From Psammoneis japonica (Eukaryota): a stretch of 64,000 nucleotides of DNA. Location of the stretch: NCBI GenBank assembly GCA_008632985.1, contig QPGO01000039.1, positions 434,001-498,000 on the forward strand, in the 5' to 3' direction. The position numbers and the translations under genes are program-made. Each line of letters begins with the position of its first letter. Within the stretch, counting starts at the first letter, position 1. This document shows, piece by piece, positions 648 to 64,000 of this stretch. The notes under the pieces are model-generated. The model was not told the DNA's origin and made no database searches. It saw only the letters and a program-made list of their open reading frames with translations.

Positions 648-2132
648 CACGCTTTTAGGTACTAGTATGGCTTTGGAGGGGAATGTGGAGCGTCTGCGTC
701 GTATCTCGCATCTTCTGAGCAAGGTACAGATCTTCGTGCAAACGCGTCGCGTCGTTTTTAGAAAAAGGAAGTGCTGGTTGCTGGTGCGTGGTGCTGAACG
801 TTTCGCTATTTTCCGACTTTACTTTTTTGTTCGTTCGTGAAAAAAGTTTATACTCTACGTACTAAAAGATCGCTTCTCTACTGGACTTTATCATACAGTA
901 CGTACAGTACAGTGGGGCCCTATCTAGATTAGAGAGGACAAAATTTCACGCTGAATCGAATGGGCCACTCTGATCTTCTGAAAATTGAGTCTTGGGAGTA
1001 TGTATCCTTTTGAGCAGGTCAATTATTTTCCCGCCAAAATACTTAATTAATTTAATTCAGCCGTTAAGTCTTGTAACAGCAGGTGCGTCGACCGACGAAA
1101 CCTCCAGACAACAATGTTGCAGGTGCAAACTGGTGGATGGCGTCACCTTCTTTGCTGCACCGCAGCTGGGAAGCTGTCGCGAAACGGACAGCAGCTGGCT
1201 CTCCACCTGGCTGCTCAAGAGAGCAGCTGGTCTGGAGCAGAGAGTGGACAAGCTCTGCAGTGGATGACCTGCAGCACTTCGCGTTGTGCAGCCATCCCAA
1301 GCGGGCTGTCACCGAGGGATTGGTGCAGGAAACACTGGGTTTTCCTGACGCATTGTCTTCAAACGTCGTTGCAACAATGTTGAAGGGCACCAGACAATGG
1401 TGCTGGTGGAGTCACATTTTTTGAGGTTTTTTAGCTGAGTCTGACCCACTTGCACGGATTGACAGCAAGCACACATGTCAAAGTGTCGCAAGGCAATGTG
1501 GTCAGAGTGCCCAGGTCGATGCCGACTGGCGCTGTCACTTGACACTTCAGGGGTGCACACAAGATGCCCACCAAGCTCCAGAGCAGATGGGTTGAGGCAA
1601 GCTGTTTTGTGCTCATGACAAAACAGGCCTGCACAGCCAACAAAGATTTGAGGCTTCTTGATGCCCAAGAAGTTGGGCAGCGCGCTGAGCACAAAACATC
1701 TGTGACACCAACAATCCAGGTGTCGCACTAGCCGTCAAGATTTCTTGAAATAAAACCCAACATTTTCTCCCTTTAATCCAAGATCGTGCTGATTTGACAA
1801 GTCAGCTTTTCTGAAACATTCAACAACAAACATCTGTGTTCCTCAGCTCAACTGTTTGCCCCCCCATCCGACAAGCCTTGTGTGTGTGTTTGGTTCTATT
1901 TTAATTTCTGGATTGTGCATTAATTGGCTTTCTGGATCAAAATCGTCGCCTGCATCCATCAATCTAGATTCTAATTGTTTTCTCAATTTTCTCTCCCTGC
2001 CCATTCCATCCTTCCTTCCCGTCCATCCGCACGTTGCATCTCTGTGTTTCTGCCCTCACTGTGTCCCCAAGTGATTGTTGCTGCACCCACTGTTTCCTTT
2101 TGATTCTCTTCTCAACTCCTTCGTCTGTGTAC

Positions 2133-5100
2133 ATGGCCATGTCGTCTGATGGTCTTGTTTGTCCATGGTGCAAACGAACCGGTTTCTTTTCCGAACGTGG
2201 CCTCAGCAGGCACATCGTAACTGACTGCCTCCGTTCCGCCGTTTCCACCAAGTCTTTCAGTTGTCCTCGTTGCAGACAACGTGGATTTGACTCTGAAAAC
2301 AATGTGCAGTGTCACCCATCTCGGCACTGCACCGCAGCATCTGGTCTCCCTCCCCCATTGACACAGTTGTGCCATGCAACCCAACAGTCTTCTTCATCCG
2401 GCGGAACATCTCTTTCCTCTCATCCTCTGGATTCTGCCTCCGTCGGCTCCCTTGGATCCAACACCAACAAACCCAAATGTCCCCATTGCCGTGTTCCCTT
2501 TTCAAACATTGCCCTTCATCCACAGAAGTGCTTGCCCTGCTGTGAAAAGGAGGAAATGTCCCTTTGCCTGCATGCCGCACCTTCCACTGCCACCCACGCA
2601 CTTCCCCCTCCAGACGACGACCATGATGAATCACTGGACGACCATGATGATCCTGCTGGGTTTGGTTTCTCCGACAACGAACCCCCCAACCCCTCCCCGA
2701 AGTCCTTTGGAATCCAGCTCCATCTCCTCCCACACCAACGGACAATTCTTCTCCAGCTTGTCCTCCCTCTGCCGGAAGTGGACTACGCCCACCCTCCGTC
2801 AGATGCTCTGGTCGATTGCGTTCAGCCGCCAATGCTGCTGCCGCTGGTGCAGCCTCCCAAAATGTCCGCCGATTTGTTTTGTTTGCAGATGATGGTGTGT
2901 CTGCCCTTGGAGAGGACAGTCCTGTGGATGTTCCTGAGTTCATTGGAGCCGACCGTCGCGATGGCAGTTGTGGCCCCCCCTCAATTTCCCATCCGACAGA
3001 AGATCCTGTTTCCTCCCTTGATCAACACAACCCTCTTGGCCCGCTGCGTGACATCGCACCCAATGAGGATTTTGATGTGCCTCCAGTCCACTCACCCAGC
3101 ATTGCACCCATGGTGCGTTTGCTGCATTTGTGTCGTTGGTCAGGTGTTGCAATTGACTTTGTCGACAAAGCAATGAGAATTTTGCATGAAGAGCATGCAG
3201 AAAAAAGACTGGATTTGTCAAAGCCACCCATCACTGCCGCCGTGGCGATGAAGCAACTCCTGGGGTTATTTCCCAATGTTCCTCTCCCCCACACTGCTGC
3301 TGTGATGCTAGAATGTAACAATCCAACACAGCAACAGAAGGATGGACCCAAATGTCGTCGCTCCCCACCTTTCCCGGTTTGCAGTTTCACCGAGACCTTG
3401 CAGGATCTCTTCACCGAGCCAGTGTTCCGTGATCTTTCCAAGTTGCAGGTTAATCCAAATGATGTCTGGTCACCTTGTGTGCCACCCCCCACCGACGGCG
3501 ATTTGGAACCCAGTGCCAGCCCGGCTGACGGTTTTGAGATGTCGTTCCCGGGTTGTCCTGGTGACTGGCGATTGTCCACTCAAAGTCAAGACATGGGTGA
3601 TGGCGAGTGGCAACAACGTCACACCAATGCCAAGGAAACGGCATCAGATTTTCACGCTCACCTTGTCAATTGCTCGGACAAGACCAGAGTCAATGCGGTC
3701 AATCCTCATGGGATGGAGCCTGTGATGTGCTCACTTGCCATGATTCAAGAGGATGCACGCCGTGACTGCCGTTGTTGGCGTCCACTCGGATTCACACCCA
3801 ATTTGGACAGGAAAGACAAGAAAGACAAGCTTGGGCACCTTGTTGTTGCCAACTGTCACCGCATTCTCAAGGAGGTCCTCCGTGGTCTGCTTCATTGCCA
3901 GGTGAATCCACCCATTGTTCATGCAACAATGGGCACTCAATGCCGCTGTGTCAGAGCTGTGACACATTGCAACTCCCTGTTGGGGGACATCCTCAATCAA
4001 GAATGCATTTGTGGAAGAGTCATGGGCCAAAGCAAGACCAAGAGGTTGTCTCACAACTGCCATGTGCCCTCCCACCGTTCTGAAGACCCCCTTCATGTCT
4101 GCCAATTTTTTAACCAAGCTTTCATAGAGTTGCTCACTGCAGCTGCATTGGGTCCGGATCCAGAGGATGACAACAGCCATTGGCACCAGCATGTTGAAAG
4201 CGTTTCCCGGAAACATCGTACAATGACATCAAAAAAAGAGGCTGAGACTGAGCTGGCTTCATCCCTCATTCGCCGAATGACTGCATGCTCCAAAATTTTG
4301 AGAAAAGTGTTTGGACAGCACGCAGTGGACAATGCTTGCTTTCCACTTAACATGGGCAACAACCCACGTGGTGCATTTGGCATGACCGTTGCTGACACAA
4401 TGCATGTGTTGGAGGCGGGCATTGTCCCTCAAATGATGGAGGCAATCATCGGAGAGATGTCTGCCAAACAGAAAGAGGAATGCGACCGCATTGCATCTGA
4501 GTCATTCTGCACATCCCATTGTCGTCCAGGTCACAGACATGACTGCCCGTGAGTTAGAGTTAACAGGGGACTTTCCACGATAGATCGTCTGGACAGGCAG
4601 GAACAAACAATGCTTCATGCCTCCATTTGTGCGCACAAACACAAAACATCACGTCCAGTGAAATGACAACAGTGCCTTCAGGACACTCGTTGGACAGCAT
4701 CTCCTCGAGTTGGTTCTGTGTCGCGTTGTTGTCAAAAAGCATTCACCCATTGCAGTTGTTGAAGAAAATCTTTAAGTTGTTCAGATGGCACAACTGATGC
4801 ACAGCATCGTCTTCAGAGAGGAAGTCCTGATTGATCAGGGTCGGAAAGCGACTGGCATTGTTGTGCCACATGGCATTGCACCACTGTGAGCCAAGATCAT
4901 GACGGGGACGGTGGAACTCGATGCTGCAGGCATTGCAGGCAGGAACAAGCAGACGACAGGCAATCGCAAAACCGCCAACACCACCACCAAAGTCGAGGAA
5001 ATTAAAATGGCTTCAAATTTGTGCCGCAAAGAGAGCGGGGTTACAAACAACCTCGGTGGAGAAGGCAAAGCTTGCCGCACCACCGTGTGATTCCACACCA

Positions 5101-5590
5101 CCACCAGCAAAACGACCAATTTGATCATCAATTGGCGGCATGTGATTGTGGCAGAGGGAACACGCGTTCCCATGACGGGAACGACTCACAACAACCATGT
5201 CTCATTGACAACAACACACTTCAGTGGACATTAAAGTGGATTGGAAAATTTGGGCAACAGAGAGAGCAATTGGACAAATGTGGCATCGGGGAAGCAGAGG
5301 GATGACCTGTTAAGACAGGCATGACAAATGGGAGGTTTGACACAACTCAACACACCAAATGAAGCAGATGTTGCATCAACAAGGAAGCGCAATGCATGCA
5401 TTGACACAAGGAGACACAACACATTGTTTGGCATTGATCCAAATGACATGGCAATCTTCATTGGTGCACTGGATTGGCCAACAAAGGTGCACAATTCAAA
5501 ACAGTGAAACGTTGATAGAAATGCAAACATGGGGTTGGGAATGAGCACTCAAAAATGATGCAAAGACCTGTTTGAATCGAGAGAGGACAC
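2133..5590 (+). mobile_element. Decayed Plavaka/CACTA-like transposase gene with N-terminal zinc fingers
   Basis: CPWC..GLSRH, CPRC, CPHC finger-like motifs. Core HLVNCSDKT...GMEPVMCSL...RCWRPLGFTPNL and TVADTMHVLEAGI resemble Plavaka-type YxDKT / EP / WRPLGYIP / DxMH motifs with Tyr->Cys/His. Frameshifts and stops are present; 3' end approximate. Confidence 0.65.
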
Positions 5591-5789
5591 GCGAGCAACG
5601 ACAAAACTGAGAAAATCACATGCAAAAGTGCGTTCTTTTTGCAACTTGCCTTTCACAAAGTGACAGGAAAGGATGGAAGTTCCAAACAAGAGGAAGCCAT
5701 GGGGAAGGCAAAAAAAAAATGGAGGATGCGGTTCTCACAGGAGTGACGGAGGGAAGAAGTGTAACTTCCAGCGGCAAGTGAGATTGAGA

Positions 5790-6970
5790 AAGGACATGAC
5801 AAAGAATTGCTGATGAACTAACACAATTGTTGGATTGATCTGTGTGGTGTCACATGAAGTCACCATGAGTCCTGCGGTGGTGGCCTTGTTGCATGCACAA
5901 AGAAACGAACATGGGGAATTGAACAGATTCCAGCATGCAGGTGGCGATTCAAGTTCGGTGGTGACTCCCACAGAGGGATGTCTTGTGTTGGATCGTGCAC
6001 CGGCGGTGGGCAAGAAATTGACAGCATCGATGTTGACCAAGGTTGTCAATGAGAGTGTTTGGCCATGTCGCAAGTTCACAATCTTCGATCATGAACTCAC
6101 CATGGGAGGAGATTGCATGAAATTGGTTCTGCAGGAGTCAAGGAGCATGGCGTCTTCACCGGAGAAGTTCTGGGAAGAATGCAAAGAGGAGTTCAGGACC
6201 AAACTCAACCGAAAGAGGAACAATGTGCAGGACAACATTGGGAGGAGAATGACAGGCAAGCAGATGTGTGCGTGCCGGTGATTGTGTTGGAGGCGATTGT
6301 CCAGCGGGATGAGTGTCTCTTCCTTTGCCATTGTCTGTGCAGTTGCTGCTTTAGAGGGATCGCCAGTGGCTTGCAAAGACTTGACAAAGGGAAGAAATGA
6401 CAAGGACACATGCGCGTGGTTCTTGGAAACTGTGGTGCCGACGGTGGTGGGACAAGCACAGTTTGGCAGAAGCACAACCGACATGCTTCAGGAATGGCTT
6501 TCGGTTTCGTCGGAGGCGTTTGCTCTGCTGGTGTGCTTGAACTGCTGCAACAAGGTGAAGGACATGGCAGAGAAATTGGAAAAGGAAGAAAATGTTGCAA
6601 GGAGAAGAAAGCCAACTGTGAAAGATGCTCTGCTCCTGCAAAGTGCACAGCGCAGGCAGCGGGGGAATCGGCAAAGAGGAGCCAAGGATGGAGCAAGGAG
6701 GGGATCAACAAGTGCAATGATCCATGTCAGTGGGTGGTGAAAGACAGAGAGAACAACCAGGGATTCGGTGCATGGTTCAAGGAGAGAAGGCGAGAGAAGA
6801 CAAACTTGTCTCAGGAGGAAAACAAGAAACGCAAAAGAGAGGAAAAAAGAAAGGAGAGAGAGGAAGGATGGGTGGCGCCAATGGGAGAGGACCCACCATT
6901 GCAGGTGGTGGCTGCAGGCAATGGAGCAGCAGCAAATGCCACAATGGCCACCAACCAAACTGGTGTGTAA
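5790..6970 (+). pseudogene. Decayed accessory gene of the Plavaka/CACTA-like element
   Basis: Fragments FWEECKEEFRTKLNRKRNNV, SVSSEAFALLVCLN, GWSKEGINKCND resemble the EAF...N / GWS.EG...YN accessory ORFs of such elements; same strand as the transposase. Confidence 0.5.
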
Positions 6971-7599
6971 ACTTAATTTGAAACAAACAATAAAATCTGG
7001 ACAAGTGAAAATTAAAAAAAACATTCTGCGATGCGGTTTGGATGCAACAACGTGTGGCAATTGGGAATTTGGATTTGAAAACGGCATGGCAAAGAGACAA
7101 AATGTAGGACGAGTTGGCAGAAAAGGAGGGTGGATTACAAGCAGCAACATTTGTGTTAAAAGAACGAGAAACCCCAAATGTCAATTGGGGTGCAGGTCTG
7201 CATTGTGTGAAAGGAATGACCACACTTAAAAGTGAGAAGCGATTTGGGCTTTAGAAGCTTATAAACTCACACAGTTCTCATGTTGTGTTTGAGGAGAGAA
7301 TTGGCTTGTAAGTCGACAACAATCTGGCATTAAAGTCAAGAAACACCCAGATTGTGGCAGACGGTCAGACCCAGATTATTGGCATCCCAGATGAAGGATC
7401 TCCACTCCCCAGACATTTGCAAGGCCACATCTGAAAATGCTGGTGGGCTTTTCTGAAAGCAGCTCCAGCTGAAGGGAGAGTTGTCTGTTGTGGCACACTG
7501 TGCCTGCAAAGAGCAAGAGTTGCCAAGGTGTGCACACCTGCCACAACCATCTGTCTTGGGCGTGTGATGTTGACTGTTGACAAGTGCAGCAAGACAGTG

Positions 7600-8600
7600 G
7601 AAGCTCAAGGCAGCTCTGGCTAAAGAGCACTGGGGTGTGACACAAAGAATGAGTGCATGCACAGACATTGCAGGAAAACAAGTTCAAGAAAAAGAAAAGA
7701 AAAGAGGAGTTGCTGGAGGCCGAGTCCTCGGCAGCACAGCAGAAATCATCCAATGGCAGCAGTGCTGATGATGGCAATGCTCCTGACAATGGCGCCACAC
7801 CTGCCAATGACTTGACTCTGCTGCTGTTGGCTCCTTCTGGGAAGACACAACAGTGCAGAACCTGCTCAATGCAGGTGATGGAGAAGGTGCAAAAAAAGCA
7901 ACCAAGAAACAAATGGATGTGAGTTGACTGCTGGATTTGCTTTTCATGGTGGATGGAAAAAGAAGTGATCAAAGGAGGCAATCCTGATGACCTTTGCATG
8001 TCCAACATTGCTCATGTGATTTGATTGTGATGCCAGCATTTTGCGATTGTGCTCAACTGTGCATTGAAGAGGCTGCCAAAAAGGAGTGCTGCATGGCTTC
8101 ACTGCTCTGTCAGCAGTGCACAATTGATGACCTCAGCAACACCTGTGGCAAGAAGCACATCCATGGATGAAGTGTAAACTTGTTGGGTTCATGACAGCAA
8201 ACCTTTCTTGTCTTTCAACCAAGGTTGCCACAGACCACTTTTGTGTTTTGTGATGCGCCTGTGCCAGAACTCTGTTGCGGAGGGAGAGTGACAACCATTG
8301 CAAGAGTGGGGAAGATGCCATTGAGTTGGAATGATGGCAGCTCTTGAATCAGTGTGTGGATTGCTGCTGACCAGCAATCAGGACCAACAGTGCATTCTTT
8401 CTTCCAATGCAGTTTCCAACTGGGCAAATCCATTTGGCTTCAGGTGTGGACCAAACAAAAAGATGTGTTGCACTGACAATCATGAATGTCCTGACAATGT
8501 GAGCTGTTGGAATGTGATGGTCCATCAACACTTGATGAAACAAGAATGAATCCTGTGTTGGGTGCAACTTCCAAAAGCAAATGCCATGGCTGGACCTGGT
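7600..8600 (+). mobile_element. Relic of a DDE transposase (IS630/Tc1-like 'YxDGHE..DV' type), N-terminal part
   Basis: NWANPFGFRCGPNKKMCCTDNHECPDNVSCW reads as W...GF.Y...KK.YY.D.HE..D.V.YR after reverting TA/CG changes. Confidence 0.45.
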
Positions 8601-8879
8601 TGAAGCTGAAGCTCTCCCAGCACTTTTGTGCCTTGGCTTCATGGCTGCAACCTCTGCATGTTTTTCTGTGCAAGCTCTGGTGCAGATGTGACCTTTTTCC
8701 AACAGTGTGAAGATGGTTCCTGCTGCCTGCCTGTTCTGAACATTTTTTCCATCCTCATGCCTTTGTTTCATTGTCATGAGCAAGCTCACGTGGTGGAAGC
8801 AAAACAACTGGCATCGAGCCCTTTTGGCTTGTTTGCTTGTCATTCTTCTTGGTGTCTTTTCTTCTCACGCGCAAAGTTT

Positions 8880-9345
8880 CTGCACAAATTTCAGCACAAA
8901 TTTTGTGTGTTCTGCAAGTCATTTCAGATGGATGACTTGCCAAACTGTCAATGGCTCTCTGTCCATGCCTCTCAAGTGTCAACAACCCCCCTTCTGCCTG
9001 TTGTCAATTTGAGTTCCCCCTGCTTTACATGGCAAACAAGCTTCCATTGTTGCTGCTCTCAGAAGTTTGACTTTGACACCTGACTGCTCAGTGCACTTTG
9101 GCCTTTCTTCCATCTGCTGACAATTCCACACAAGTTTCAGCACATTTTCCACATGTCTCAAAGGTCATTTTGGATGATTGACTTGCCAAATGGTCAACTG
9201 CTCTCTGCACATGCCTCTCAGGCATCAATGGCTCCCTTTCTGCTCTTTGTCTGCTCAACTTCTCTGCTTCATGTGGCAAACGATCCCCCATCATTGCTGC
9301 TCCCTGAAGTCTGAATTTGAGACCAGCTCAGTGTGAGTTGGTGTT
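8880..9345 (-). repeat. Two diverged ~245-bp tandem units, possibly decayed HMG-box-like coding repeats
   Basis: gtcattt..gatg..tgacttgccaaa..gtcaa..gctctctg..catgcctctca occurs near 8918 and 9164. The minus-strand translation REPLMPER...KMTFETCGK...ELSADGRK is weakly HMG-like. Confidence 0.4.
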
Positions 9346-12300
9346 TGCCTCATTTCCTCCCTTTTCTCCAGCCAAAACTTTTCCAGACTGCCTGTTTCAC
9401 CTTTGCAGCCAGATCTGATTCCAAGAAGAAAGCTCAATTGCAGCATCAAGTGCTTTGGTTGCAATGTCTCATTTTGCTGGTCCTGTTTTTGCCACTGCCA
9501 GCTGTTTCCGGTGGGCACCACAGACTTGTGGTGTCAAGCTTGTCCATCTGTTGTGCATCCCTGCTGCACCATGTGATGTGCTGGGGGTGTGGGTTGGCTT
9601 GTTGTGCTGGAGTTGCAGGGTGGAAGTGTGGCAGCACTTTAAAATGAATTTTGGGTTTGGTTTGTTTTTGTTTTTGAAGCTCTCCCAGCAAAAACAGGGC
9701 ATGAACACCATGTCAATGGAGAAGACTTTGTTCAGCATTGTGCCAATGCTGTCATTGACTGAACATCCAAGCCTTGCACACAAGCTGTCTACTGCCTGCT
9801 GTGACAGAGTGGGTTGAGCTTTGCAGAAATGCCACCCATTCTGTGTTTGCCCAAACTTGCTGCTCAAAACATGACATGTTTGAGTGATTGCTCACATTTG
9901 CCCAAGTTTTGGCAGATTTCATTGGACCATGACACAACTGTCAAATGCAAAAAGGGATGCACTGCTTGGACTGTTGGTGTTGGGTGTTGTGTTCTCACAT
10001 GCTTTGCCGCTGGCAACATGCAGCAACAAGATGCATTGCATCCAAGCTCTTTTTTTTAATGTTGGTTTTGATTGTGCCAGCAGAAAAAAGGAGGGGACTT
10101 GAAAGTGACTGTGCAACAGCTGGCCTGATGGTCCAGGAGGTGGCTGCTGCAGGAGCAAAGGGTGGGAACACATTGCAGCTGCAGGAGGGTGACAATGTGA
10201 CGCCGAGTGAGTGAAGCCAAGCTGAGCACTGCAGCTGGGCTTTGAGCCCAAAACCCTGCCAGAGAGAGACCAGCCAGAGCTCTGCCAGCTCCAGGTGCTC
10301 CTCCTCCCAGTCTGGTTTGGCTGCTCAAGCTGTGATGTGCTGACCCAAAGGCTGTGTTTGGGCTGTGTGGTGGGTGGGAGAGAAGAGAAGCTTGTCAGCT
10401 GGACTGCTTGCCTCAGACCCTGCACCATGAGTGAGCTCTGGAGAAAAGAATGAGAGACATTGCAGTGCTGCTGAGATGTTGAGTCACCTCCTCAGGGTGC
10501 ACAACAACTCTTGGGTGCTCCAATGTTGCTCATGGCTTCTTTGCTCTTCAACTGCACAAATGCACAAATGATGCCATGTGTTGAAAGCAGAAAGCCAATG
10601 TGCTGAAGTTGCAACCACCAACTCAGAAAATTGATGCAGAGCAAGCTCATTTGTGCATTTGTTTTCTGCACCAAAGCAATGGTGCCAAAGGCAAAGCAGT
10701 GGCAAATCCTTGTTTGCTGTTGACATTTCTTCATTGCTCAGAATTTAAAATCTGGATGACCACCAAACATTTGGCTGTGTCTTTGTGTCAAAGTGGAGGC
10801 AGTGCTTGACAATTTGCACCGTCATTCAGCCAGCTTCTTGCTCTGACTTGAAGTTGAACAGGCACTTGATGATTTGCACTGTTCACATGGCATGTTCTGG
10901 CTCTGTGTCATTCAATGAGATGGGTGATGGGCTTGTCATCAACCAGCCACCAGAGCATGAAATTTTTGCCAATTGGAGGGTTTCTAATGTAAAAACTGGA
11001 CAAACAAATGATGAACAACAAACATTTTCAGTCAAGTCACTCACAAAAAGTGATTGTCTTTGAGTGTCTGTCACACGGCAGATTGTCAAACAGTGTGGGA
11101 CACCACACACAATGACAGTGCTGATGTGGGCAGTCATCCTTCAAGTGATTGTGCCATGTGTGTGGGGCATGAATTGCGCCACGCGCCACAAGGTCATGCC
11201 ACACATGGCACATTTGTTGCACACACAAAGGGGCAATTTCCAGAGTCATCACACACATGCCCAGCTTTAGACTGCTGTGATGCAGCAGCATGTGCCATGT
11301 CCAGAGACAACAGATCTTGCCAGCAACAAGGGCAGTGAACACAGAAATTGTAAAGGTGCTCCAAGCAAAAAGAAGTGGCACCATCAGCTGTTGCTTGTTT
11401 CCCATCTCTCTGTTGTCTTTTCTTCTTTTTTGCAGTGCAGTGGCTGTGACCCCTCCCCACCTCTTGTTCAGAAGTTTGCCTTTTGTCACAAGCCCATTTC
11501 ATCCACTTCCTTTCTGCTGCCATGTCAGGCACAATGGTCAAAGCATTTTGCTTTTCAACTTTTGCACAAAGTGCCTTGAGTTGGCAATGCAAGAGAAGCT
11601 GCCCCCAAGCTCTGGCAGCTGGGTTTGGCTCAGCTGTTGCTTGGTGCCTCACCTGGCCAAGGTTGTGCAGAGTTGATTTGCTTTTCTTTGCATGGCTTCT
11701 TGACTCCATTCATGTCACCCTGACAAAAACAAGCTTGCATTTTCTCACATTGCTTCTGCTGCTGCCCACCTTGTGCTGGCACATGCCGGGGGGCATTTCT
11801 GGCCACATCGTCAGATGCAGAGCCCAAAACTTGCTCTCTGTTCACCTTTTCATTTTGCCATTGCTCCATCTGCTTGCTGCTCCAGTGCACAGAGTCGCTT
11901 TCTGCTGCTGCTGCTGCTGCTCTTGCCACTCTTGGTGTTTCTGCAAGGCATTGTGCTGGGAGCTCTGCACCAAAATTGCACAAAGAAAATTTTCTAGCTC
12001 CACAGCAAGGTTGTGGAGCATGCTTGCCCTCATCATTTGTGACAGAAGCAGCACAGGGCATTGGAGAGACATCTTTGGCAAGTTCCAGTGCTCTTCCATG
12101 CTTCTTGGAAATTGCAGCAAGTGTGTTGAGAGACAGTTTTTTGAGAGGCACCAGCTCTCAACAACAAAATTGGATGACACCCCAAAGCAGTGTTCAAAGC
12201 GCTTTGTGTGGGGTGCTGCTTGGGGCCATGGACAACCTTCTCAGCAGCTGGCCAGCTGGGATGGTGGTGAGCTCCTGCTGGGCTGCACTGCAATGCATCT

Positions 12301-13989
12301 CAACTGGCTGCTTGCTTTTGCCCCCCACAGCAATTTCACAATTTTCATTTTTGGCACTTTGTTCATCCCTTCCACCTCCTGTTTTTTCAAGTTACAGCAC
12401 ACAGGGCTCTCTGCGAGGAGAGCTCCAGTGCTCAGCACCACCCTGGCTTTTTGCTCTGCCACCTGCAGCCATCAGCTCTGTGGCTGCTGGACATCTGCCT
12501 GCTTCTGCACAAACTCCTTGTCATCTGTGCATCATGCTTTGCTTCACACAAAATTGTTCCTTGTCCTTGAGTGCAGGCTTTGGCAACAGGTGCTTGTGAA
12601 ATGATCAGCTCACACACCACATTAAAATCTCAGTTGCTTTTGCATGCTGACTTTTGCTTTGCTTCAGCTGAAGCCAGCCAAAACCTGCTGGCCACACCCA
12701 GCCAAAAAATGCCTGTTGCACCCCTTGTTTTGCACCCAAAAGGCCAACAAACAACAAACATGCCCTGTTTGTGCAGAGCCAGTGCATTGACAAACACTGC
12801 ATTAGAGGCAGGCACCATGTCAAGCACTGAAGCTGCACACAACATCCCATGGGGAGCAAAATGAGAATTTTGGGGCACAAGTTGCCATGGCAGTGTGTGG
12901 TGTGTGGCAGTTTTTGACAACTTCTCTTGACTTCATGAGTCTTAACCCCAGAGAATGAGGGTGCCACTCCATTGTTGACCAACTGTGAAATTCACCAAAA
13001 CAAGCTGTGGTGACTCCAGAGAGGTGACTCAACTTCGACCAAGCTTCCATTGGAGTGACTTGGGCAAGTGTGTTGCACCAAGCAGCTGGACAAAACAAAA
13101 GCCAACAAAAGCATTGCTTTTCACACTGCACAAGACAATCACAGACAAGGTGGAAAAGAAAACCTTTTCAGCAGCAGCAAAAAAACATGGAAGAACAGAT
13201 TTCAGCCACTTGACACACACACCATTTCTGACTGGATTTCATGGACAAATTCCAGAGTTGCAACTTTGTCCCAATCCCAAAACAGCACCAACAAAAAAAG
13301 TGCAACCCTCTCCAGCTTTAAAAGCTGGCATCATTTCAATGTTTTGAACATGGTTGGAGTGAACAATTTGCAAGAAAGCAACTCAGCACTTTGACCCTGA
13401 TCTTTTTTTCTTTTGAAAGGTGCAACAGCATCAAGGCTGCAACTGACACTGGCACTGACTTCTTCTCCTGCTTGGAACTCCAGTGTCAGAAAGAAGAAGT
13501 GTGTGTCCATCACATTCTTTTTTGCAGTTTGGAAGCTGTGCCTTGTTCTGTCTCACAAGCACTTTGTGACCAAATCAAATTGAGTGGGAATGTTCTGTTC
13601 ATGCTGAAACCACAGCCCAAACTTGACAGAGCTGGAGCAGCAGTGTTTTGAGCAGTGAAAACAAAAAAAACCTTTTGAACTGCAGATCTCTCAACAAATT
13701 TGTTGCCATTGTGCAACATGTCACATTGGCGGCCACAAGCTGTGAGTGACCACCATGTGGCACTGGCAAGGTTCTTTGCATTGAGAGTGTGCACACCCAA
13801 CTTGTGACTCTGCATGCACTTGCTGTGGCTGGCAATTGGCAATGGGGTTGGGGGGCAACAGCAGCAACAAGTTCTTGCCAACAGAGGCAGAAGCCCGCTC
13901 TGCACACTGTTGGCAAGATCAAGTGGGTTGACCTCTCACTCATTTTTTGATTTGCTGTGTTGGCAATGGCATCAAAAGTGCTGGTGATG

Positions 13990-41629: not shown

Positions 41630-41710
41630 ATGGGTTCACACCATTCATGTCCCCGTGTTCTAATTTCCCAGCCACGGGGATTCATGACACGTTACGTCGT
41701 GATGCGACCA

Positions 41711-51186: not shown

Positions 51187-51565
51187 TGCACCATGCTTGA
51201 AGAACAAGTGCAAATGAAAGCAGAATGAATCACAAAAGTGAAAATTGTGAGATTAGATTTTGTTCTAAGATTTGGGTTTCTACAAAGAAGCTCTCTCAAT
51301 GGCCCAAAGCTTTCACACTGCTTCCACAGACCAAATGCCTTGCAGAGAATTAGATCATGATGACAGATTGTCTGGATGCAATCAACATTGACATCTTGTG
51401 TGTCATCATCATTGTCCAATCACACTTGCAACATTTGACATCCAATCACATCTGTGTGATTGATCTGCCCTTCATGCGCATCCACAATTGTGGTGTGATT
51501 GACACACACAACAATGTGCAATTGTGAATGTGCTCATTTCCTGCAGCTTGTCAATGCATGCTGCA
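51187..51565 (-). repeat. 5' LTR
   Basis: Same termini and internal gtgaaaattgtgagattagattttgttctaagatttggg as the other LTR. Confidence 0.9.
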
Positions 51566-52664
51566 ATCTGGATGATTGGAAAGTCGTGCTGGGATCAATC
51601 AGCAATGGTGGCCTCTCCTTGGTCCTGTTGCACTTTGAAGCCATGCTCTCTGTGAGAAAATGGCACCCCCACCTGGCCCCACACACTTTGCACCACCAGC
51701 AGCACTTGCCCATTTCCTGAAACACAAACCTGCTCAGAGGCTCAATCACAGGTGGATGGCAGGAGAGTGTTGCGTGGGTCAAGTTTTAGAGTCATTCTTG
51801 TCCCAATGGGCATGGAGCTGCAAGTTGATGTGTTGTGAAACTCATCATGTGGCACATGTGAGTTTTGCAGTTGTTTTCCAAACCAGGCCTGTGGGAAGCA
51901 TTGGCCACTTGTCTTTCTTTGTGGGTGAGCCACCGTTGCATGCTGCATTGCCTGTGTGTGCGTGTGCCCCCCTGCCACCAAGGCTGGCATTGCAGTGGCA
52001 GGGTGGTGGGGGCACAACACTGGTGACATGGATGACCATTGTGTTTGATGGCTCGTGCCATTTTTGGGGCTGCAGGGAGGTGCACAGACACTCTTTTTTG
52101 TCCAATTTGCCACCAAAATGGCACATTGCACACACTCACTTGTCACTTGACATGTTTTTTCCAATGCAACTGTTTTGTGTGCAACTCATGACAAATTCTC
52201 TTTGTGCAAAGCCCAGTGCATTTTTCAACATGCCATGCCACCAATCCCAATTTCACAGCACTTTCAAGCTCTTCTAAAAAACTTCTCCATGCACCCATCA
52301 CAGGGAATTTGGTCAATTTTTTGGCAAGTCTCCACAACGTCCAATGTCCTCAATGATCATTCTCTGAATCTGAGCAATTTGTTTGCACCAAACAACATGT
52401 GCTGTTCCAAAATCCAAGGGACACACTTTCAAATGGCAGCTGAGGACACCCCAACCAGCTGCCCGACTGCATGACCAACTGCATGACCCCCACCCCAAAG
52501 GATGTGAAAAAGTCTGCAATCACCAACCACTGAGTGGTCAATTGAGAATCAGTGTTTTTCATTGCAGTGCCCTGATGACAGCAAGATGGAACCCAACACT
52601 TGGTGTGTGCGTGAACGCACTGCAGGCATCAACACAAAATTCTGCACACAACAATGACTCTCTG

Positions 52665-55475
52665 AGCTTGATCATGGTCAGTGCTGCTGCTCAGCTCTCA
52701 ATGACAGCTTGCTTCTCATGCTCTTGCTTGGTGGCTCACTTTTGGCACTGTGGGCTGATTGTTGCTGGACAGGAAAGTGCTCAGGCAGTGCAGTGCCAAC
52801 CCCCACCAGGCTCCAACCACTGGTGAACAATGAATGCCAAGATGCTCATGATGTGACTTGACATGCCGCAGCATGCTGTTCCCTTGCAGATCCCCTTGCC
52901 ACCCTCTGTTGGAGCACAAGCACCACAACTCCTGTTGAAAACAGAAACAACAACACATCAAAATGCACTCCATCATGTCCTGTGGACTGAAAACCAAGCA
53001 ACTTCTCAACTTCTCCTGAAGCTGACAATTGATGACAGATTGACAAACTGACAAGCATTGTTGTGTAATTTGCAAACTCCTGCAAATGGTGCATGTGATT
53101 GCACATCAGAATCATGTCTGCAGTCAGTGCATTTTTGAAATCATGCTTGGTGACACTCAAGATTCTCATTCAGGGTGCAAGGGTTTTTGATCCAGTGGAC
53201 TTGTGTGATCATTCCACTGCTCAATCTGTCAAATGTCAGAGGGCAGATGTCAACATTGCAAAGCATTGTTGCCATTGTAGAAAGTGTGTTGACAGCAGCA
53301 TTGTGAAAGAGTCTCACAAAAAGCAGTCAAGCACAAAACAACAAGGCTCTTCTTGCACAAGCAGCAGCAATCATCGCTGAACTGCAGTTGACTTAGAAAC
53401 ATGCATTCATCACTTTGTCTCTGTGCATTTCTGTTTTCAAGGCAAAAGCACAAGCAATTGAGTCAACAAAGAAAACTGAATGATGATTGCCACCATCTTT
53501 GCTGTGGTTGTGGCAAGTCTTCTGTCTTGCCATGGTGTGCTGGCTTTCTTCCCCAATGGATTTGAGATGGTCACTTGTGAGTGCATTGATTCTCTTGAGA
53601 AGCTAATTGATGCTGAACTGCAATTAACTTAGACACATGCATTCATCTCCATTGCTTTGTCTCTGTGCATTTTGTCATCCAGGTAAAAGCACAAAGCAAT
53701 TGAGTCAACAAAGAAAACCAAATGACAAAGAGCATCACCTTTGCTGTGGTTGTGGCCAGCATTTTCTCTTGCCATGGCACACAGGCACACTTTCCCAAGG
53801 GATTTGAGTTTGTCACTTGCAAACACAAAGAGTCTCTCAAGAAGTCAATTGAGGCCGCCAATGGTTTCCCAAACTGCAATGATCCGTGGAACGTCCAAAA
53901 CTCCTGGCACATGATTTGCAATGCAAGAGATGCAAAAATGGAGATCAAGGCTGGAGATGCACTTGCATCACTTGAGAAGCTCAAAGAAGTGATCTTGTGG
54001 GCCAGAAGGATTGTCAACAGAGAAAATTGTCCAACAGATGACTGTGCAAGAGCCCAGCATGCTGTTGACATCAGCCAACAGGCCAGCGACATGGCCTTTG
54101 AATTGTTTGCATCATTTGACTTGTTCAAATCATTTTGCTTGCATTTGGACAAAGACATGCACTGGCTTGTAGACCAGAAGCTTCAACATGTGTTGCACAA
54201 CCAAAGGTCAGGAAATGGTGTGAACCTGTGCAGGCACTCCTGGACGTTGTCAGCATCTTGCTTGAATCCATGGGAGAAAGCACTGTCCCCCCTTGCATTG
54301 AAGTCACTGATGTGGACCATCCTAATGGATTCTGTGATGGCAATCCATTTGCTCTGAATGGCAACAACTTGGCAGATTGTCCTTGCCAACTGGGTTGTCA
54401 AGATCAATGTGGCACATGCTTGACTCCCAACATTCCCAGCATTTGTGCTTCATCAGCCTTCATGTTGATGAAAATGAACAAGAAGTGTTCCTTTCACACA
54501 GAGGCAGGGCATTGCACACATGGTCAAAATCAAGAAGGCAATGGCAATGGAATGACATTCACAATGCACCAGGATCCTTGTGGCACAAACACACTTGTGT
54601 TTTCTGGCAGTGCTCTGGGTGTGCATTCCTCAGCATGCTGCACCAACCACAAGATGTGTCAGCTGTTGCAACAGTGCTTTTTGTCAAAATGGACGGGTGT
54701 GAGTGAAGCACAAACTTGGTTGTTTCCTTTTTTGTTGAACACAGGAAATGCATTCCAGCCAAAACTGATGCATTTTGAATTGCTTTTGCTGCAGATTGCA
54801 ATCCAGAGTGTGGTGACAGTGGCGGATGCTGAATTCATGTGCAACTTGTGGATGAAGATGGTTGTCACCAAGAACTGGCCCAGGAATGGGCTCCCATTGG
54901 TACAGGGGAGCATTGCATGGGACATGTTTGGGTCATCTGTGATGGAGAAAGTTGGGCTCTCAAGGTGCATCATGTGACAGATTCACACGTTGCTCCCACA
55001 CATCCAGTTGTCAGCATGACCTGCACAGACTTGGCCAGCTTCTTTGTGGGCAACCAGGTTTTTGTTGGTGCCACTGAAAGCATGTGGACCCATGCTGACT
55101 GTCAAGACCTCAAGATGTCTCTTGCTTTCTCCCAGCAAATGGGATCACCTGTGGTGCATTCATGCCCCGGTCTTCTCTTTCCCAGCCATGGGGATTCATG
55201 ACATGTTTCATCATTCTGCAACCACCATCCACATTCAAGAATCTAAATCTCCCTGGAAGCGGGGATTCATGATGTGCAGTGTGTCATCTGCATTTGGGTG
55301 CCTTGGAATTCTTTCTTCAAAGTCAAGGATTCATCAAGGTCTGCATGTTTGGATCCTTCACTTCTCTTCCTAAGAACAAACAAATGTGACGTTGCATCTT
55401 CACTTCTGTCCATTTTAGTTCCATGATTTGGACAACATGCATGTGACGGTCAAAGTTGCACAATGCACTTCACAT
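52665..55475 (+). pseudogene. Hypermutated copy of the lectin locus (39465-42350) including upstream, intron and downstream DNA; 5' part duplicated (~53378-53614)
   Basis: Colinear homology, e.g. MTKSITFAVVVASIFSCHG vs MKTIIFAVAVASLISCHG and GNGMTFTMHQDPCG vs GDGMTFTMHQDPRG; frameshifted; stop TAA->CAA. Confidence 0.93.
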
Positions 55476-55499
55476 TGTTGGCACCTGCTCTGGAGGTGG

Positions 55500-58400
55500 C
55501 CACTCTAGCTGGGTGCTCTCTTGGTGTTAGAAATCACAAGTGTGTGGCTGTTTTGCTTGGCAGATGACTCAATGAAGGGGCACTCAATGGGCACAGCCAA
55601 AGTGACAATTGTGCCATCTCTGCAAAGAAAAATGGGCACAAAACAAACATGGAAATGGCAGTGTTTCTCCATTCTTGTTGTTTGTTCTGGTGCACCAGAG
55701 GGGGGCTTCAACATTGACAATCAATGACAATGATGATTCCTGATTCATGTGGTGCTCTTCATCCTCGTCCCAGACTCACTTCCCTGGCAACAATGCCGCT
55801 GATGGGTTGCTTGCTGCAGCAGGAGGACAGAGAGCATGCAGGCAGACATTTCCATCTGCAGTTGGGTGGGATGAATCAACAACTGAATGCCCACATCAGA
55901 CGTGCTTGAGTTGAGCAGCAAATGAGGGCAGCAGCCATGTTTGGAGTTGATCTGCACAAGACACTGCTTCTTGTGTGCCTTCAACAACTCTGGTTTGTTG
56001 CTGCTGCAACCTTCTGATCTCTCTTTTGCTGACCCACTTCTGGAGCCAACATGATTGGCATCATGTGTTGCTTGCTCTTCTGACTTGGCCTGATCAGTGA
56101 TGTGCTTTGACATCAACTGCAAGCAGCCCACATCCCTCAGAAAGCCTCAATGCCATTGCAAAAGAGGCTCCCCATGCTGCCTTCCTGTCACCACCTTGTG
56201 CAGCACACACATCATGAACAAGGCTGTTTTTGTAATTTTGCTGAAGAAGCTCCCCTCTGCCTGTGGACACTCTTCTGTGCCACTGCTGATGAACACTCCA
56301 GCAATGATGTGTTGTTGGCTGGAGTCAATGACCATGCACCCCGCTGTTCTCAGACCAGCTTGATGTCTGATTTTGTTCTGCCACTGCTTGTCAGTCAATT
56401 GTGCCTGGCAAAGGCAGCACAAGACTGCCAAGGGATGATGGTCAGAGACATCTTAGATGCTGCATCTCTGCATGTCTCCATCTGAGATCTGCTCATGTTG
56501 TTCTTGCTGTCCCTGGCTTGCAGAGTGCAGTTCTGGGTTGATTGTTGGCAGGGGCTGTTGCTGCCATGTGTGACAGGTTTTGGCCTCACTCCAGACCTCT
56601 CACACATGTTGTTGAGAGCAGGTCTTGCTGACACCCTCTGACAACATGCCATTGATTGCCACACTGACTCATCATTGTTTTGTGGTGAGCTGCACAAGCC
56701 CACATTTTTGTTTTGATCAGCAGACTTTTTTTGTTGAGTCTTGACTTTTTTTGGGATGCACAGATCAGCAGCACTGGCACCTTCTGCAAGTTGCAAGAGC
56801 AAAAGTTGAGTGCGCCTCTGCCATGACAGGGCACAAGCCTTTTGCAGTTGTTTCTAACACCCTCAGAGAGACTTTGAAAATGTTTGTCAGAACAACTCCC
56901 ATGTGCCTGAAGCCACAACATCCCTGAGCGACACCTGCAGTGACTTGGTTTGTGGACTGGTTGGAGCAATCTTCAAGAGAGCACTTTTCTCAAAAGGCAC
57001 AAGCACTCCAATGGATGGCAGCTCATCTTAACTTTCAAGACAGATGCATGGTCACAAGATCAAGGTGGACCTCAAGCCTTGCCAAACAAAAGCACTCATT
57101 TCCAATTGGTGCATCATGCATCCACTTTGCTCCTGGCATGACACACACACCAACTTGGCCAAGATCTCCAGCAACCCTCAGCATTCTCATCCAGGGTGCA
57201 AGCCTTGTGTGATCATTCCACTGTTTTGTCAACTTGCACTGGCAATGTGGAGCAGTGTGCAAAGCCGTTGATGGAAAAACAAGTGCATGTTGTCTCTCAT
57301 GCCAAAAAGCCAGTGGCACTGGTCTGGGTTGTGTGGCTGCAGCCACATTGCCTGTCATGAGGTGCTTTCCAGAAGGACAAGAGAGCACATCTTCTGGAGC
57401 TGAGGAGTGTGTGCTCTCTTTTTTGAACAGCATGCAAAGCCTTGTCAAGCTCACCACAAGAGAAAACCAAGGAAGGTTGCTGAGGAGAGAGCAACGATGT
57501 GTCTCATGAGAAACCTGGAGACTGGCTGTGTTCCGCATCTGTGCTGCATTTTTTAGATCACTTGTTTGTCATTGTTTTCATTGGGGAGCCTCCATCTGAT
57601 GCTGAAACATTGCAATCTGCCAGTTGTTGCTGCCATGAACCGCAAAGTGCTGCTGGCAAAAGATGCCACAGCCATGGCAACAATGCACTGGGCATGCAAC
57701 AGAGACCCTTGGGCCTTCTGGCTTCACATCAACCATCACACTGGGGTGGGTGATGTTGAGTCTTAAGAAGCCTGGAAGGCTTTGGATGAGAGGAAGCTTG
57801 CAATGCCAAAAAAGAAACAGCTTCTCCAAATGGTGCTTGAAAATCAAGCAGCAACCACACCGGATCTCCACACTGACTTTGGGTTGACAGCTTTTGAAGC
57901 TAGCCTGCAAGCTGCTCAATTCAAAGAAAGTGCAAAAAGGGAGTGGCCAACCTCTCTGTGAGTGGAGGAAAACCTCAGCAGACAAACATGCAGTGAGGGC
58001 AGACACAAAGAACTGTTTGTTGGAAGCAAAACAGGTGGGCCTTTCAGCAGACTTTTTGAAAGTTTCATTGTTGCTTGTTGCAAAATTCCTCCAAGATGAC
58101 ATTGGCAGGATGACGCATGCATTTGCCCATGTCCTGAAACCACCAGCTCTGTGAAATGAATCATTTGGCTTTGACTGCAGAAAATGGAAAAGTGTGAGGC
58201 AAGTGAAGCTCATTGTTGGCATCTTGATGAAGCACCAAACCCAAAATTTTGGCACTGGCTCTGTTGCATCTGGCACAAGAAATTTGCTGCTTGCTGTGGC
58301 ACTTTCCTTCAGTCTCTTCACTCCCATCTTGTTCAAGTTGCCTGGAGCTCTGGTGGCATCAGCATGAGCTCATTGTGATGCTGCTCTGTTTCACACTGAT

Positions 58401-58990
58401 GTTTGATCACAAGTGCTCATCTGAACAGCAAATTTGTTTCACGGTGCTCAGCACTGGTGTGGCCACTGTTTTGCACCAGGAGAGTTGCCCTCTCTGACAA
58501 AGCACAGGAGATAAGGAGGGCACTCCTGCTCAGTTGCTTGTGAAGAGGCTGGTTGTGCCATGCTTCAGTGGGTGTAAACCTCTTGTGCTTCCAAAGCACA
58601 AAAACAACAGGGAGTGTGCCACTGGAGAAAAACAACTGAATGTGGAAAAAAGGAGCATGGAAGGAAACTGCAAGAAGGATGACAGGCCTGCTGGCACACT
58701 CTCAACAGCATGGGGTCAGAAATTGCAGCTGTGGCAGTGATCAGCTGAAGCTGCCATTGGAACAAAAGACCTTCCCAAGTGTTTTGGATTGCCTGAAATC
58801 TTTGTTTCCAGCAAGAAATTGTTGCAAATGAATCATTCTCAAGTTCAAGTGCAGAGCCCTCAGCATTCTCACAGCTCCCAGTTGAACCATGTTGATGTGC
58901 AGCTTTTGCCACACAGGGGACACATTCTCAATTTTCTGCACTTTGCCACTCACCACTCTGTGCTCCATCTGACTGCTAATGGCTGGCAAT
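55500..58990. mobile_element. Unclassified decayed element; possible tyrosine-recombinase fragment near 56100-56180 on the minus strand
   Basis: Minus frame reads ASFAMALRLSEGCGLLAVDVK, resembling YR box I (LRxxE...L...DV); nothing else recognised. Confidence 0.3.
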
Positions 58991-62356: not shown

Positions 62357-62568
62357 GGTGAAAGGTGAAAGGCGTTTGTTATGTGGTTCGTACCGGGGAA
62401 AAAAAAATGAGTTGCATGATGGCATGTTCGTGTGTCGTGCGTGCGCAAGGGTTCGATCGGGATCAACCATGATGGTGCGGTTGTTGCTGCGGGTTGGAAA
62501 GTAAACTGAAAACAGAGAAGACCCACACGAGGAGTCATCCAGAGTCGATGTGCTCATTGACATCTTGG

Positions 62569-64000
62569 TCAGTCGGTGGCGAGGATAATCTGAAGGACAC
62601 CTTTCTTAAAACTCCAGTGGGGCAGAACCATCGAACAGGCAACAGTTGCAGTCATTTGAACACTGCACTGCTCTGCATGAAACGGGGCGTTTGCATGTGC
62701 TGCCCGTCCATCAGGTTGACAAATCCCAAATTCGGTGGCACAGCATCCTGCACCTGCAAGCTCGTTGGGATAAACGTCGAACCTCCACTCGTGAATGTCG
62801 TTGATCCTCATTTTCCCGCCCACCACACACTCATGTCCTTCATCATTGTGCCCGTCTCGCCAAACTTCAAAATTCACACCAACTCGGGCTCCTGTCCACT
62901 TTCCGATAGAGTGTCTGATGTGAATCCACCATCACAGCCTTTGAATGATTCAATCTCAAGTCCCTGGCCTGTCAATGGTGCCCGTTTCAGAGCCAATTTG
63001 GGAGGGCAGAAAAAGTCTTCACATCTGTGCCTGGTGATCTGTGAATCCGCAAAGGCGCACCCAATGGCCTGATGGCTTTCATTTCCAGGAAAGGACAGTC
63101 CACTGGGCATGCATCGCCTGCTCCATTGCCATCAGTGTCAGCCTGATCAGCATTGCGAATAAACGAGCAGTTGTCAATGTAATCGGGAACACCATCACCA
63201 TCAGTGTCACCATTGGAGTCTGCCTGCAAATCCAACATCAACCAACTCATCGAATTGAAACACCCATGCTCTCTAAAAAGCAGCTTTCCATCAAAGAATG
63301 GGTGTTGAGTCGCGAGTCCATCTTCGTTCACTGTGTTGCCGACACTCGCATCCTTCGTCGCCATTCCAGTGGCACCTTTCACCGGATCGTGCACCCACAC
63401 ACTGGATTGGAATCCGGCAGCACCAGCAAACCCAACAAAATGGTTGAAGATCAACTTTCCATCAGAGGCAGACAGACAGCAAATTCGTGAATGCTTGCCA
63501 TTGTTGCCGACATTCTTAATCATCTCAAGAGTGTCTTTGATGGGATCGCACACGAAAAGTGATCTTCCGCATGTTTTGTCTTGAGCGATGAAATGCAGCT
63601 TGCCATTCAACAGTGCAAGCCCTTCTGACCATGGCGGCACAGGGAATGGTTTGTAGCTGGCCAATGCCCGAGTTGAGCCGCTAGTTGGATCGTGCATCCA
63701 GAGGTCACGGAATCGCGAGTGGGTGCTGTTGCTGGATTTGAAGTGCAGCTTTCCATCGAGTGAAGTCATTGACCTCACAAATGCCAAATTTTGCTTCACC
63801 AACGTTGTTCTGGTTTTGTCCAAGTTGTGCGCAAAGACCTCTTCAGATCCACAAGCACCATCTTTGAAATGCAAGGTTCTGTCTGCTGGTGTTAAACTTT
63901 CAAAGCCAGTCTCCGTCTTTTTTGACCGAAACACCTTTTTGATTCTGACGGGTTCCAGCCCCAGGTGGGACTCCGTGTGACATTGGGCCCGTAGAATTCT
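62569..64000 (-). pseudogene. TpA-mutated gene with ELWxxDG-like propeller repeats and thrombospondin type-3 repeats (block 4; 5' end likely outside window)
   Basis: GKLHF...DLWMHDP, GKLHF..SLFVCDP, VWVHDP (Tyr->His/Cys of LYF/WxYDP); DTDGDGVPDYIDNC...NADQADTDGNGAGDAC; frameshift; TA rare, CG retained. Confidence 0.75.

Follow-up and report, generated by a model that had tools for sequence, protein, structure and literature searches.

Conversion of TA and CG steps in mobile-element and pseudogene blocks of a Psammoneis japonica contig

The DNA analyzed here is a stretch of 64,000 nucleotides from the diatom Psammoneis japonica (contig QPGO01000039.1, positions 434,001 to 498,000 of the forward strand), hereafter the window. 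In blocks containing a DNA transposon copy, a long terminal repeat (LTR) retrotransposon relic and a pseudogene copy of a nearby gene, TA and CG steps have been converted to TG and CA on both strands. The change occurred on DNA, in place and after integration, and the loss of TA is a process separate from the loss of CpG. We consider it probable that the blocks record hypermutation of TpA in place by a DNA adenine deaminase, combined with CpG decay in silenced mobile DNA.

TA-poor blocks and the direction of change

The TA-poor blocks of the 64-kb window were delimited on a 200-bp grid, and a 1-kb profile was also made. By the grid segmentation they total 33,400 of 64,000 bases (~52% of the window), with observed/expected (o/e) ratios for TA of 0.05-0.13. 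An earlier note on this DNA had described more than half of it as almost free of TA and rich in TG and CA, in keeping with these values:

Block 1, grid 1201-15400: TA o/e 0.07, CG 0.30, TG 1.79, CA 1.70; TA edges at 1075..15470, with TA o/e 0.04-0.11 and CG o/e 0.11-0.50 between them
Block 2, grid 27801-29000, edges 27820..29100, both sharp: TA o/e 0.09, CG 0.14
Block 3, grid 42601-59000, edges 42700..58980: TA o/e 0.05, CG 0.15, TG 1.84, CA 1.92
Block 4, grid 62401-64000, TA fading from ~61990: TA o/e 0.13, CG 0.67

The o/e of TG and CA is 1.5-1.9 across the blocks, and the normal DNA of the window has a TA o/e of 0.52-0.58 and a CG o/e of 0.96-1.07. The blocks (33,400 bp) hold 140 TA, 467 CG and 7,478 TG+CA, versus 1,252, 1,662 and 4,589, respectively, in the normal DNA (30,600 bp), which corresponds per kb to 4.2 versus 40.9 TA, 14.0 versus 54.3 CG and 223.9 versus 150.0 TG+CA. 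The mass balance per kb is -77.0 for TA+CG (-36.7 for TA alone) and +73.9 for TG+CA, and the G+C content is nearly equal (0.47-0.50 in the blocks, 0.46 in normal DNA). Block 3 retains 54 TA within 16.4 kb.

The TA edges are resolved to tens of bases at ~1075, 15400-15470, 27820, 29100, 42700 and 58980. The earlier description of four sharply bounded blocks is thus accurate for blocks 1-3, whereas block 4 fades in: its onset is gradual, CpG is largely kept and the block ends with the window. In 250-bp steps its TA o/e ranges from 0.06 to 0.28 and its CG o/e from 0.38 to 1.11, and 6 of its 20 residual TA lie in YTAR (Y, pyrimidine; R, purine). Block 4 is a partial or early stage, or else a doubtful case. 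Block 2 is an isolated 1.3-kb island, poor in both TA and CG, in which a search for terminal repeats and Pfam domains found none.

The block bases were compared with contigs built independently from a public sequencing run (X1), which cover 30 of 30 bins of window positions 1-20000. A 3,370-bp contig on 11178-14547, within block 1, shows 2 differences at a depth of 71 (55-67 in the flanking genes), and each edge of block 1 is crossed by another contig, one on 939-1733 that matches exactly and one on 14969-15668 that has 2 differences. The earlier note had made its proposal depend on support from raw reads, and the contigs of this one run carry the same block bases at the depth of single-copy DNA; the note's alternative of contaminant DNA is countered by block 3, which holds a diverged copy of the window's own normal gene. 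Among the 40 listed of 194 differences between X1 and the window, 14 lie in blocks, and 12 of these 14 exchange TA or CG with TG or CA (7 between CG and TG/CA, 3 between TA and TG, 2 belonging to one swap of TG with CA), the other 2 being of different kinds. This polymorphism signature shows signs of a recent or ongoing process.

The direction of the change can be read from a pair of paralogs, found by self-comparison of the window (68.4% identity, 2,664 aligned bases):

39475..41852, + strand: normal paralog, a lectin-like gene with an open reading frame (ORF) at 40237-41232, used as the ancestral reference
52682..55376, + strand: hypermutated pseudogene copy of 39475-41852, in block 3

The reference has normal TA and CG contents, an open frame with 4.8% Tyr, and Pfam lectin domains. 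Its 109 TA sites correspond to TG in 32 and CA in 36 cases in the copy (68/109 converted), with 7 kept, and its 150 CG sites to TG in 53 and CA in 53 cases (106/150 converted), with 6 kept; CA itself was retained at 124/196 sites and TG at 125/174. A→G changes are found at 35/109 TA sites versus 69/551 sites elsewhere, and T→C changes at 36/108 versus 72/583, so that both are enriched at TpA relative to other contexts, as the earlier proposal implied. Sorted by the preceding base, A→G affects 21/173 AA, 31/194 CA, 17/184 GA and 35/109 TA. At CG, C→T amounts to 56/146 (67/488 outside CG) and G→A to 57/148 (63/445 outside CG). A general drive from AT to GC is absent, because A→G and T→C changes away from TA are comparable to G→A and C→T changes outside CG; GC-biased gene conversion was rejected, as there is no AT→GC excess outside TA. 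None of the 16 Tyr codons of the normal gene is kept in the copy, where they are replaced by 5 His, 3 Cys, 1 CAA, 1 TGA, 5 other codons and 1 gap.

Evidence on timing comes from a second relic in block 3:

47211..51565, - strand: LTR retrotransposon relic, with LTRs at 47211-47582 and 51187-51565

Both LTRs have the form TG..CA, the flanks carry a 4-bp ATCT target duplication, and a purine-rich tract adjoins the 3' LTR. Of the 367 bases aligned between the two LTRs, 69 differ, and 23 double swaps of TG with CA account for 46 of these, versus 2.2 swaps expected and a maximum of 9 in 5,000 permutations. Since the LTRs were identical on arrival and now exchange TG for CA, each must have resolved its ancestral TA or CG sites alone, to the product of either strand, and the 23 independent swaps rule out that the change came mainly from edited RNA or cDNA. 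The 46 sites they imply per 367 bases, compared with ~35 at the normal density of TA+CG, suggest that CG sites alone would be insufficient. The element keeps 14 TA in 4,355 bp (3.2/kb versus 40.9/kb), and its LTRs show 11 ordinary transitions per 367 bases; assuming a normal starting density of TA, the loss of TA is estimated as at least ~80-fold faster than background. The paralog pair, the LTR pair and the changes of Tyr into Cys or His all agree on the polarity from TA to TG and CA first put forward in the earlier note.

The LTRs and the target duplication support a retroelement, but not its superfamily. The peptide WCHAHLLHPG, previously presented as an altered gypsy integrase motif, is indeed encoded at 48484-48513 on the minus strand, but the integrase family was not confirmed: the three read-through frames of 47000-50601 match no Pfam family at E ≤ 0.01, and a comparison of the peptide's region with solved structures gave no integrase at E ≤ 1. 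The retroelement frame at 47400-50399 (minus strand) contains 35 stops in 1,000 codons, 33 of them TGA.

Two local features lie in or near block 3. Its only assembly gap, 41 N at 44038-44078, is surrounded by direct and inverted copies of a unit of ~110-340 bp (43463-44493, 90-94% alike), and this part may be assembled unreliably. A tandem array with a 128-bp unit and normal TA (41711-42225, units 94-98% alike) lies ~500 bp ahead of block 3. Open frames of at least 90 codons are very frequent in the blocks (164 inside or touching them), because TAA and TAG vanish together with TA, and such stretched frames invite false gene calls.

Separation of TA loss from CpG loss, targeting and context

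Block 1 is a nested composite, in which a young, high-copy element lies within older, fully decayed single-copy relic DNA. The features needed here are:

1634..8197, + strand: high-copy Plavaka/CACTA-like DNA transposon copy, its limits set by a contig joint and not by proven termini
1080..1530: left margin of block 1, with 1 TA versus 12.8 expected (P 4e-5) and CG o/e 0.58
15166..15400: right margin of block 1, with 0 TA versus 6.7 expected (P 0.001) and CG o/e 0.85

The word depth of the element is 1,500-4,500, versus ~60 in flanking genes, and 657 of the 2,621 contig pieces that match it are at least 99% alike; a search for its terminal inverted repeat found no clear one. Its TA o/e is 0.11 and its CG o/e 0.48, versus 0.04 and 0.11, respectively, in the surrounding older DNA (8198-15400). 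On either side of block 1, TA is depleted for a further 200-450 bp past the CpG-poor zone. TA loss is therefore a process separate from CpG loss, because it has gone about twice as far in the youngest element, reaches wider and follows a sequence rule of its own. The earlier argument that CpG deamination cannot remove TA stands, with TA loss running ahead of CG loss in both the young element and the margins. In one X1 contig of single-copy depth (61), 1633 is followed immediately by 8198, and the 6,564 bp in between, which match the high-copy element, are absent; this joint may represent an unoccupied site or another haplotype that lacks the insertion.

Single-copy relic DNA at 12007-15341 (depth 72-81) is depleted as strongly as the repeats, so the target looks like a domain or an element and not a present-day repeat. 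The label 'RIP-like' (RIP, repeat-induced point mutation), taken in the sense of sensing duplications, is not supported, as the normal paralog is untouched 13 kb away from its saturated copy.

The sequence rule of the TA process was derived from the 124 residual TAs of blocks 1-3, compared with 1,192 TAs of normal DNA. YTAR accounts for 83/124 residual TAs versus 180/1,192 in normal DNA, with TTAA the most frequent survivor (37, a share 8.3x that of normal DNA), followed by TTAG (23) and CTAA (16). In contrast, ATAT, GTAT and ATAC together make up 0/124 residual TAs versus 286/1,192 in normal DNA. A strand-additive model, in which the loss on each strand is set by the base 3' of the target A, gave exponents of 0 for A, 0.84 for G, 2.07 for C and 2.92 for T. 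This model improves greatly on one without context (likelihood ratio 233, 3 degrees of freedom, p 2e-50), and its residual deviance is 16.0 (12 degrees of freedom, p 0.19). Under the model, TA loss follows the order T > C > G >> A by 3' base, and TTAA is spared.

Transposases almost devoid of tyrosine

The consequences of TA loss for proteins are seen most clearly in the high-copy element of block 1, which carries:

2651..4549, + strand: transposase-like open frame of 633 codons, Pfam PF18759 (Plavaka)

The frame matches PF18759 at E 1.5e-6 (28.1 bits, cut-off 26.3) and has 527 relatives, the best at 41% identity (E 2e-107) and 18 at E ≤ 1e-30. In a protein atlas, the look-alikes of one of these relatives are Plavaka clusters. 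There is no Tyr among the 633 residues of the frame, although the family has a median Tyr content of 2.9%. Tyr is present in half or more of 28 relatives at 5 alignment columns, of which 4 have Cys and 1 has His in the transposase of the window, so that the replacement of conserved Tyr by Cys or His claimed in the earlier note is borne out in 5/5 columns of a family alignment. Conserved Trp (4/4 columns) and His (5/5 columns) are all kept.

Four nearly Tyr-free proteins were found among the 150 relatives listed, with 0/382, 1/1,127, 1/1,290 and 1/1,200 Tyr residues. At conserved-Tyr columns these four have Cys or His in 20/26 cases, versus 1/31 in four left-out controls. The frames of these four (P0163, P0195, P0210 and P0255) are full-length, the longest having 1,290 residues, and contain one Tyr or none; several near-identical copies exist, and gene callers report them as proteins. 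The near-identical copies differ mainly by exchanges between Cys and His, Ile and Thr, and Met and Thr, and by Tyr→His; P0210 and P0273 differ at 2 residues, both exchanges of Cys and His. Evidently TA-poor transposase copies continued to multiply, or else they are shared between samples. The Tyr-poor relatives lie on public JGI, ENA and NCBI contigs and would come from other organisms, since the proteins of the window itself are absent from that database. A word-index search gave no match with the transposase frame of the window, and P0255 matched only itself; two metagenome scans, with the window frame and P0195 as queries, confirmed no relative.

Possible mechanisms, known systems and neighboring genes

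The reading we favor assigns the two losses to two activities. The blocks are mobile-element and pseudogene DNA of a diatom, probably silenced, in which nearly all TpA and CpG were converted in place on the DNA, on both strands, after integration or duplication. The CpG part would be ordinary deamination of 5-methylcytosine in methylated repeats, and the TpA part is most likely due to a DNA-acting adenine deaminase that turns A into inosine, which is read as G. Such a deaminase would be directed to a chromatin domain or an element, and not to paired duplicates, and the erasure of Tyr and other TA-containing codons would disable the elements permanently. The blocks would show where TpA hypermutation, as measured in Bigelowiella natans, leads in the long term.

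In B. natans, two integrated viral regions mutate ~1000-fold faster, and 230/231 de novo mutations, seen in mutation-accumulation lines, are A→G or T→C, all of them at TpA and giving TpG or CpA (Mettrop et al. 2026, bioRxiv 10.64898/2026.01.13.699255). According to the accessible part of this preprint, the genome contains 124 clusters poor in TpA and rich in CpA+TpG, which are enriched in reverse transcriptase and DDE domains; an ADAT2-like enzyme is proposed as a candidate, and DNA activity is cited for ADAT2 of amphioxus and trypanosomes (10.64898/2026.01.13.699255). CpG, a wider sequence context and diatoms do not come up in the same part of the text. As far as that text goes, the two cases share the dinucleotide, the products and the confinement to foreign or mobile DNA beside a normal genome. 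They differ in host (a rhizarian versus a stramenopile), in the kind of data (de novo events measured there, fixed substitutions inferred here), in the degree of depletion (mild in the giant-virus region, Rho TpA 0.45, versus an o/e of 0.05 here) and in the targets (a single-copy giant-virus insert and a virophage there; transposons, a retroelement and a gene copy here). The available text reports no post-integration test, which the LTR pair provided here.

A literature search for TpA hypermutation in diatoms found no report. Within this search, the earlier statement that no description was known holds for diatoms but not for the phenomenon, which the B. natans preprint of 2026 reports. The diatom case is a new, saturated example of the kind that this preprint was the first to describe. 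It extends the kind to another lineage, to an end state of saturation, to accompanying CpG decay, to a rule for the 3' context and to Tyr-free transposases from other genomes, and it adds proof of action after integration and evidence that TA loss is a process of its own.

Several points weigh against in-place hypermutation by an adenine deaminase. The silencing of the block DNA is putative, and in sequence the deamination of A and a change of the paired T are indistinguishable, which also applies to the earlier label 'adenine-directed'. No deaminase or DNA-modification domain occurs in the 27, 149 and 129 ORFs of the window that were scanned, in line with the earlier remark that no mutator enzyme is recognizable in it. 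Runs of the same fate along one strand are hardly seen (runs tests, p 0.28, 0.10, 0.03 and 0.26), which neither fits nor excludes a single-strand deaminase, and the skew between TG and CA varies no more in the blocks than in normal DNA (variance 1.55 versus 1.77). The swaps between the LTRs are not separable into TA or CG ancestry. The context model presumes that TA contexts in the blocks were at first those of normal DNA, and the residual TAs may include new ones. In the paralog pair, the fates trend as predicted (YTAY to TG 16 and CA 9, RTAR to TG 6 and CA 11), but not significantly (Fisher p 0.115). Run X1 may be the source sample of the assembly itself; all matching runs belong to one sample and study with the platform unrecorded. 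Finally, the accessible account of B. natans reports no CpG component, and the mechanisms of the two cases may differ.

The thymine of TpA could be the target in place of the adenine, which we regard as rather unlikely. Silenced DNA would carry a modified T, for example an oxidized thymine akin to 5-hydroxymethyluracil or base J and produced by a TET/JBP-type enzyme, that would mispair with G or, alternatively, be misrepaired to C, with the same outcome of CA and TG. The outcome at the palindromic site is strand-symmetric, T→C and A→G being equivalent, and the context rule can equally be read as R-T-A sensitive and Y-T-A refractory. Dinoflagellate 5-hydroxymethyluracil is said to favor TpA, but we know of no such thymine modification in diatoms, and oxidized thymines pair mostly with A. 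The sole experimental precedent, B. natans, is attributed in the accessible preprint text to adenine deamination, a proposal itself unproven.

We give only a small chance to TA loss as a by-product of repair, in which T:G mismatches from deaminated 5-methylcytosine would recruit mismatch repair and a Pol eta-like polymerase, whose typical error is A→G at WA motifs. The two losses do occupy the same domains, TA loss passes the CpG-poor zone by a few hundred bases, about the length of a repair tract, and, with TA and CG sites pooled, their outcomes as TG or CA show weak clustering (p 0.03). However, in the paralog pair A→G is raised only at TA (35/109) and not at AA (21/173), despite the WA motif, and the order is wrong, as TA loss is ahead of CpG loss in the young element and in block 4. 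In B. natans, moreover, the hypermutations are all at TpA, without a reported C→T component.

That the blocks always avoided TA and CG, by foreign composition (for instance as viral or horizontally acquired DNA) or by selection of the elements against TA, is very unlikely. It would suit the TA-poor state shared by many copies of the element at 1634-8197 (657 of 2,621 contig pieces at least 99% alike) and the full-length Tyr-free transposase copies on several contigs elsewhere, which imply that copying went on in the TA-poor state. Against it, the host gene copy and the LTRs show the change arising in place, conserved Tyr is destroyed and frames are broken (35 stops per 1,000 codons in the retroelement frame), and non-coding margins are affected as well.

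Editing before integration, by ADAR-like conversion of A to inosine on transcripts or by editing of cDNA and then fixed by reverse transcription, appears highly improbable. ADARs are metazoan enzymes that prefer a 3' G, opposite to the observed order of 3' bases. The independent resolution of sites by the two LTRs, with 23 swaps, contradicts this explanation for most sites; the change is equally strong in a DNA transposon and in a segmental gene copy, falls on both strands alike and extends to margins outside the elements. One affected element is, however, an LTR retrotransposon, and the 5' T of the TA step recalls the 5' U preference typical of ADARs, as described in the accessible text of the preprint (10.64898/2026.01.13.699255).

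An artifact, either wrong consensus calls at modified bases or misassembled contaminant DNA, could draw on the 41-N gap in block 3 and on the single sample and study, of unrecorded platform, behind all matching runs, but is scarcely conceivable given that independent X1 contigs agree at the depth of neighboring genes and cross both edges of block 1, that the block DNA carries diverged copies of the window's own gene, and that indels and transversions have accumulated in it as in old relics.

Other known processes share some features with the change seen here and differ in others. Fungal RIP, as in Neurospora, changes C to T, mostly CpA to TpA, creating TA, and it senses duplications and mutates both copies. 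The diatom blocks resemble it as a mutational defense with dinucleotide-context transitions in mobile elements and sharply bounded odd blocks. RIP enriches TA, however, whereas here TA is depleted ten-fold and CA and TG are enriched, the opposite polarity noted earlier, and the normal paralog is spared where RIP would hit both duplicates. Decay of methylated CpG explains the CG→TG/CA changes at 106/150 sites, with methylation presumed here, but leaves TA intact, whereas 36.7 TA/kb were lost and the margins keep a CG o/e of 0.58-0.85. Hyper-editing by ADARs is alike in A→G changes, 5' U preference and action on repeats, but is a metazoan process at the RNA level with a 3' G preference, whereas the change here took place on DNA after integration.

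The tRNA deaminases TadA and ADAT2 act on an A with U or T on its 5' side, as with A34, whose 5' neighbor is U33, and the site in tRNA-Arg is U-A-C-G. The observed preferences for a 5' T and a 3' pyrimidine are compatible with such enzymes, although no deaminase gene occurs among the scanned ORFs of the window. To our knowledge, natural DNA adenine-editing enzymes are almost unknown, and laboratory adenine base editors were evolved from the tRNA enzyme.

As a tentative idea, possible but not one we would lean on, a TA-directed editing defense (5'-T-A-N, with N = T > C > G and hardly A) might be common to Rhizaria, stramenopiles and the owners of the Tyr-free transposases, through one conserved, chromatin-guided DNA adenine deaminase that acts faster than CpG methylation decay. 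If so, diatoms would represent the defense at saturation, and open frames without Tyr would allow it to be mapped cheaply across the tree of life. The saturated footprint suggests an old or recurrent process that shapes the repeat landscapes of major phytoplankton, and TpA hypermutation may be a widespread, little-known way to disable invading DNA. With the 3'-base rule, it can be tested sharply whether diatom and Bigelowiella have one process in common, and substrates can be designed for an enzyme hunt. For annotation, the blocks hide transposons from domain searches, and proteins predicted from them come out without tyrosine.

The genes that flank the blocks lie in ordinary DNA, as the earlier note had described. 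They include a GST-like gene, the lectin-like gene and the following:

16077-17711: arginyl-tRNA synthetase (ArgRS) gene
18421-20256, 23063-25438 and 29369-31255, - strand: three paralogous FAST kinase-like/RAP-domain genes
33180-34025, - strand: inosine-uridine-preferring nucleoside hydrolase gene, in a normal region

The nucleoside hydrolase acts on nucleosides, and nothing ties it to the DNA changes. The hypermutated 1.3-kb island of block 2 sits between the second and third FAST/RAP genes, and the middle gene of the three contains self-matches within 23296-24669 at offsets of ~110, 220, 330 and 665 bp. The named best matches of the ArgRS are all from diatoms, at no more than 70% identity, which marks the host as a diatom that has no close relative in the database searched. 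Upstream of it, 15998-16210 (+ strand) gives a weak match to a GST C-terminal-like domain (E 0.001, below the cut-off), which fits the GST-like N-terminal extension (PF14497) present in some diatom ArgRS relatives and suggests an intron or a frame change in the 5' part of the gene.

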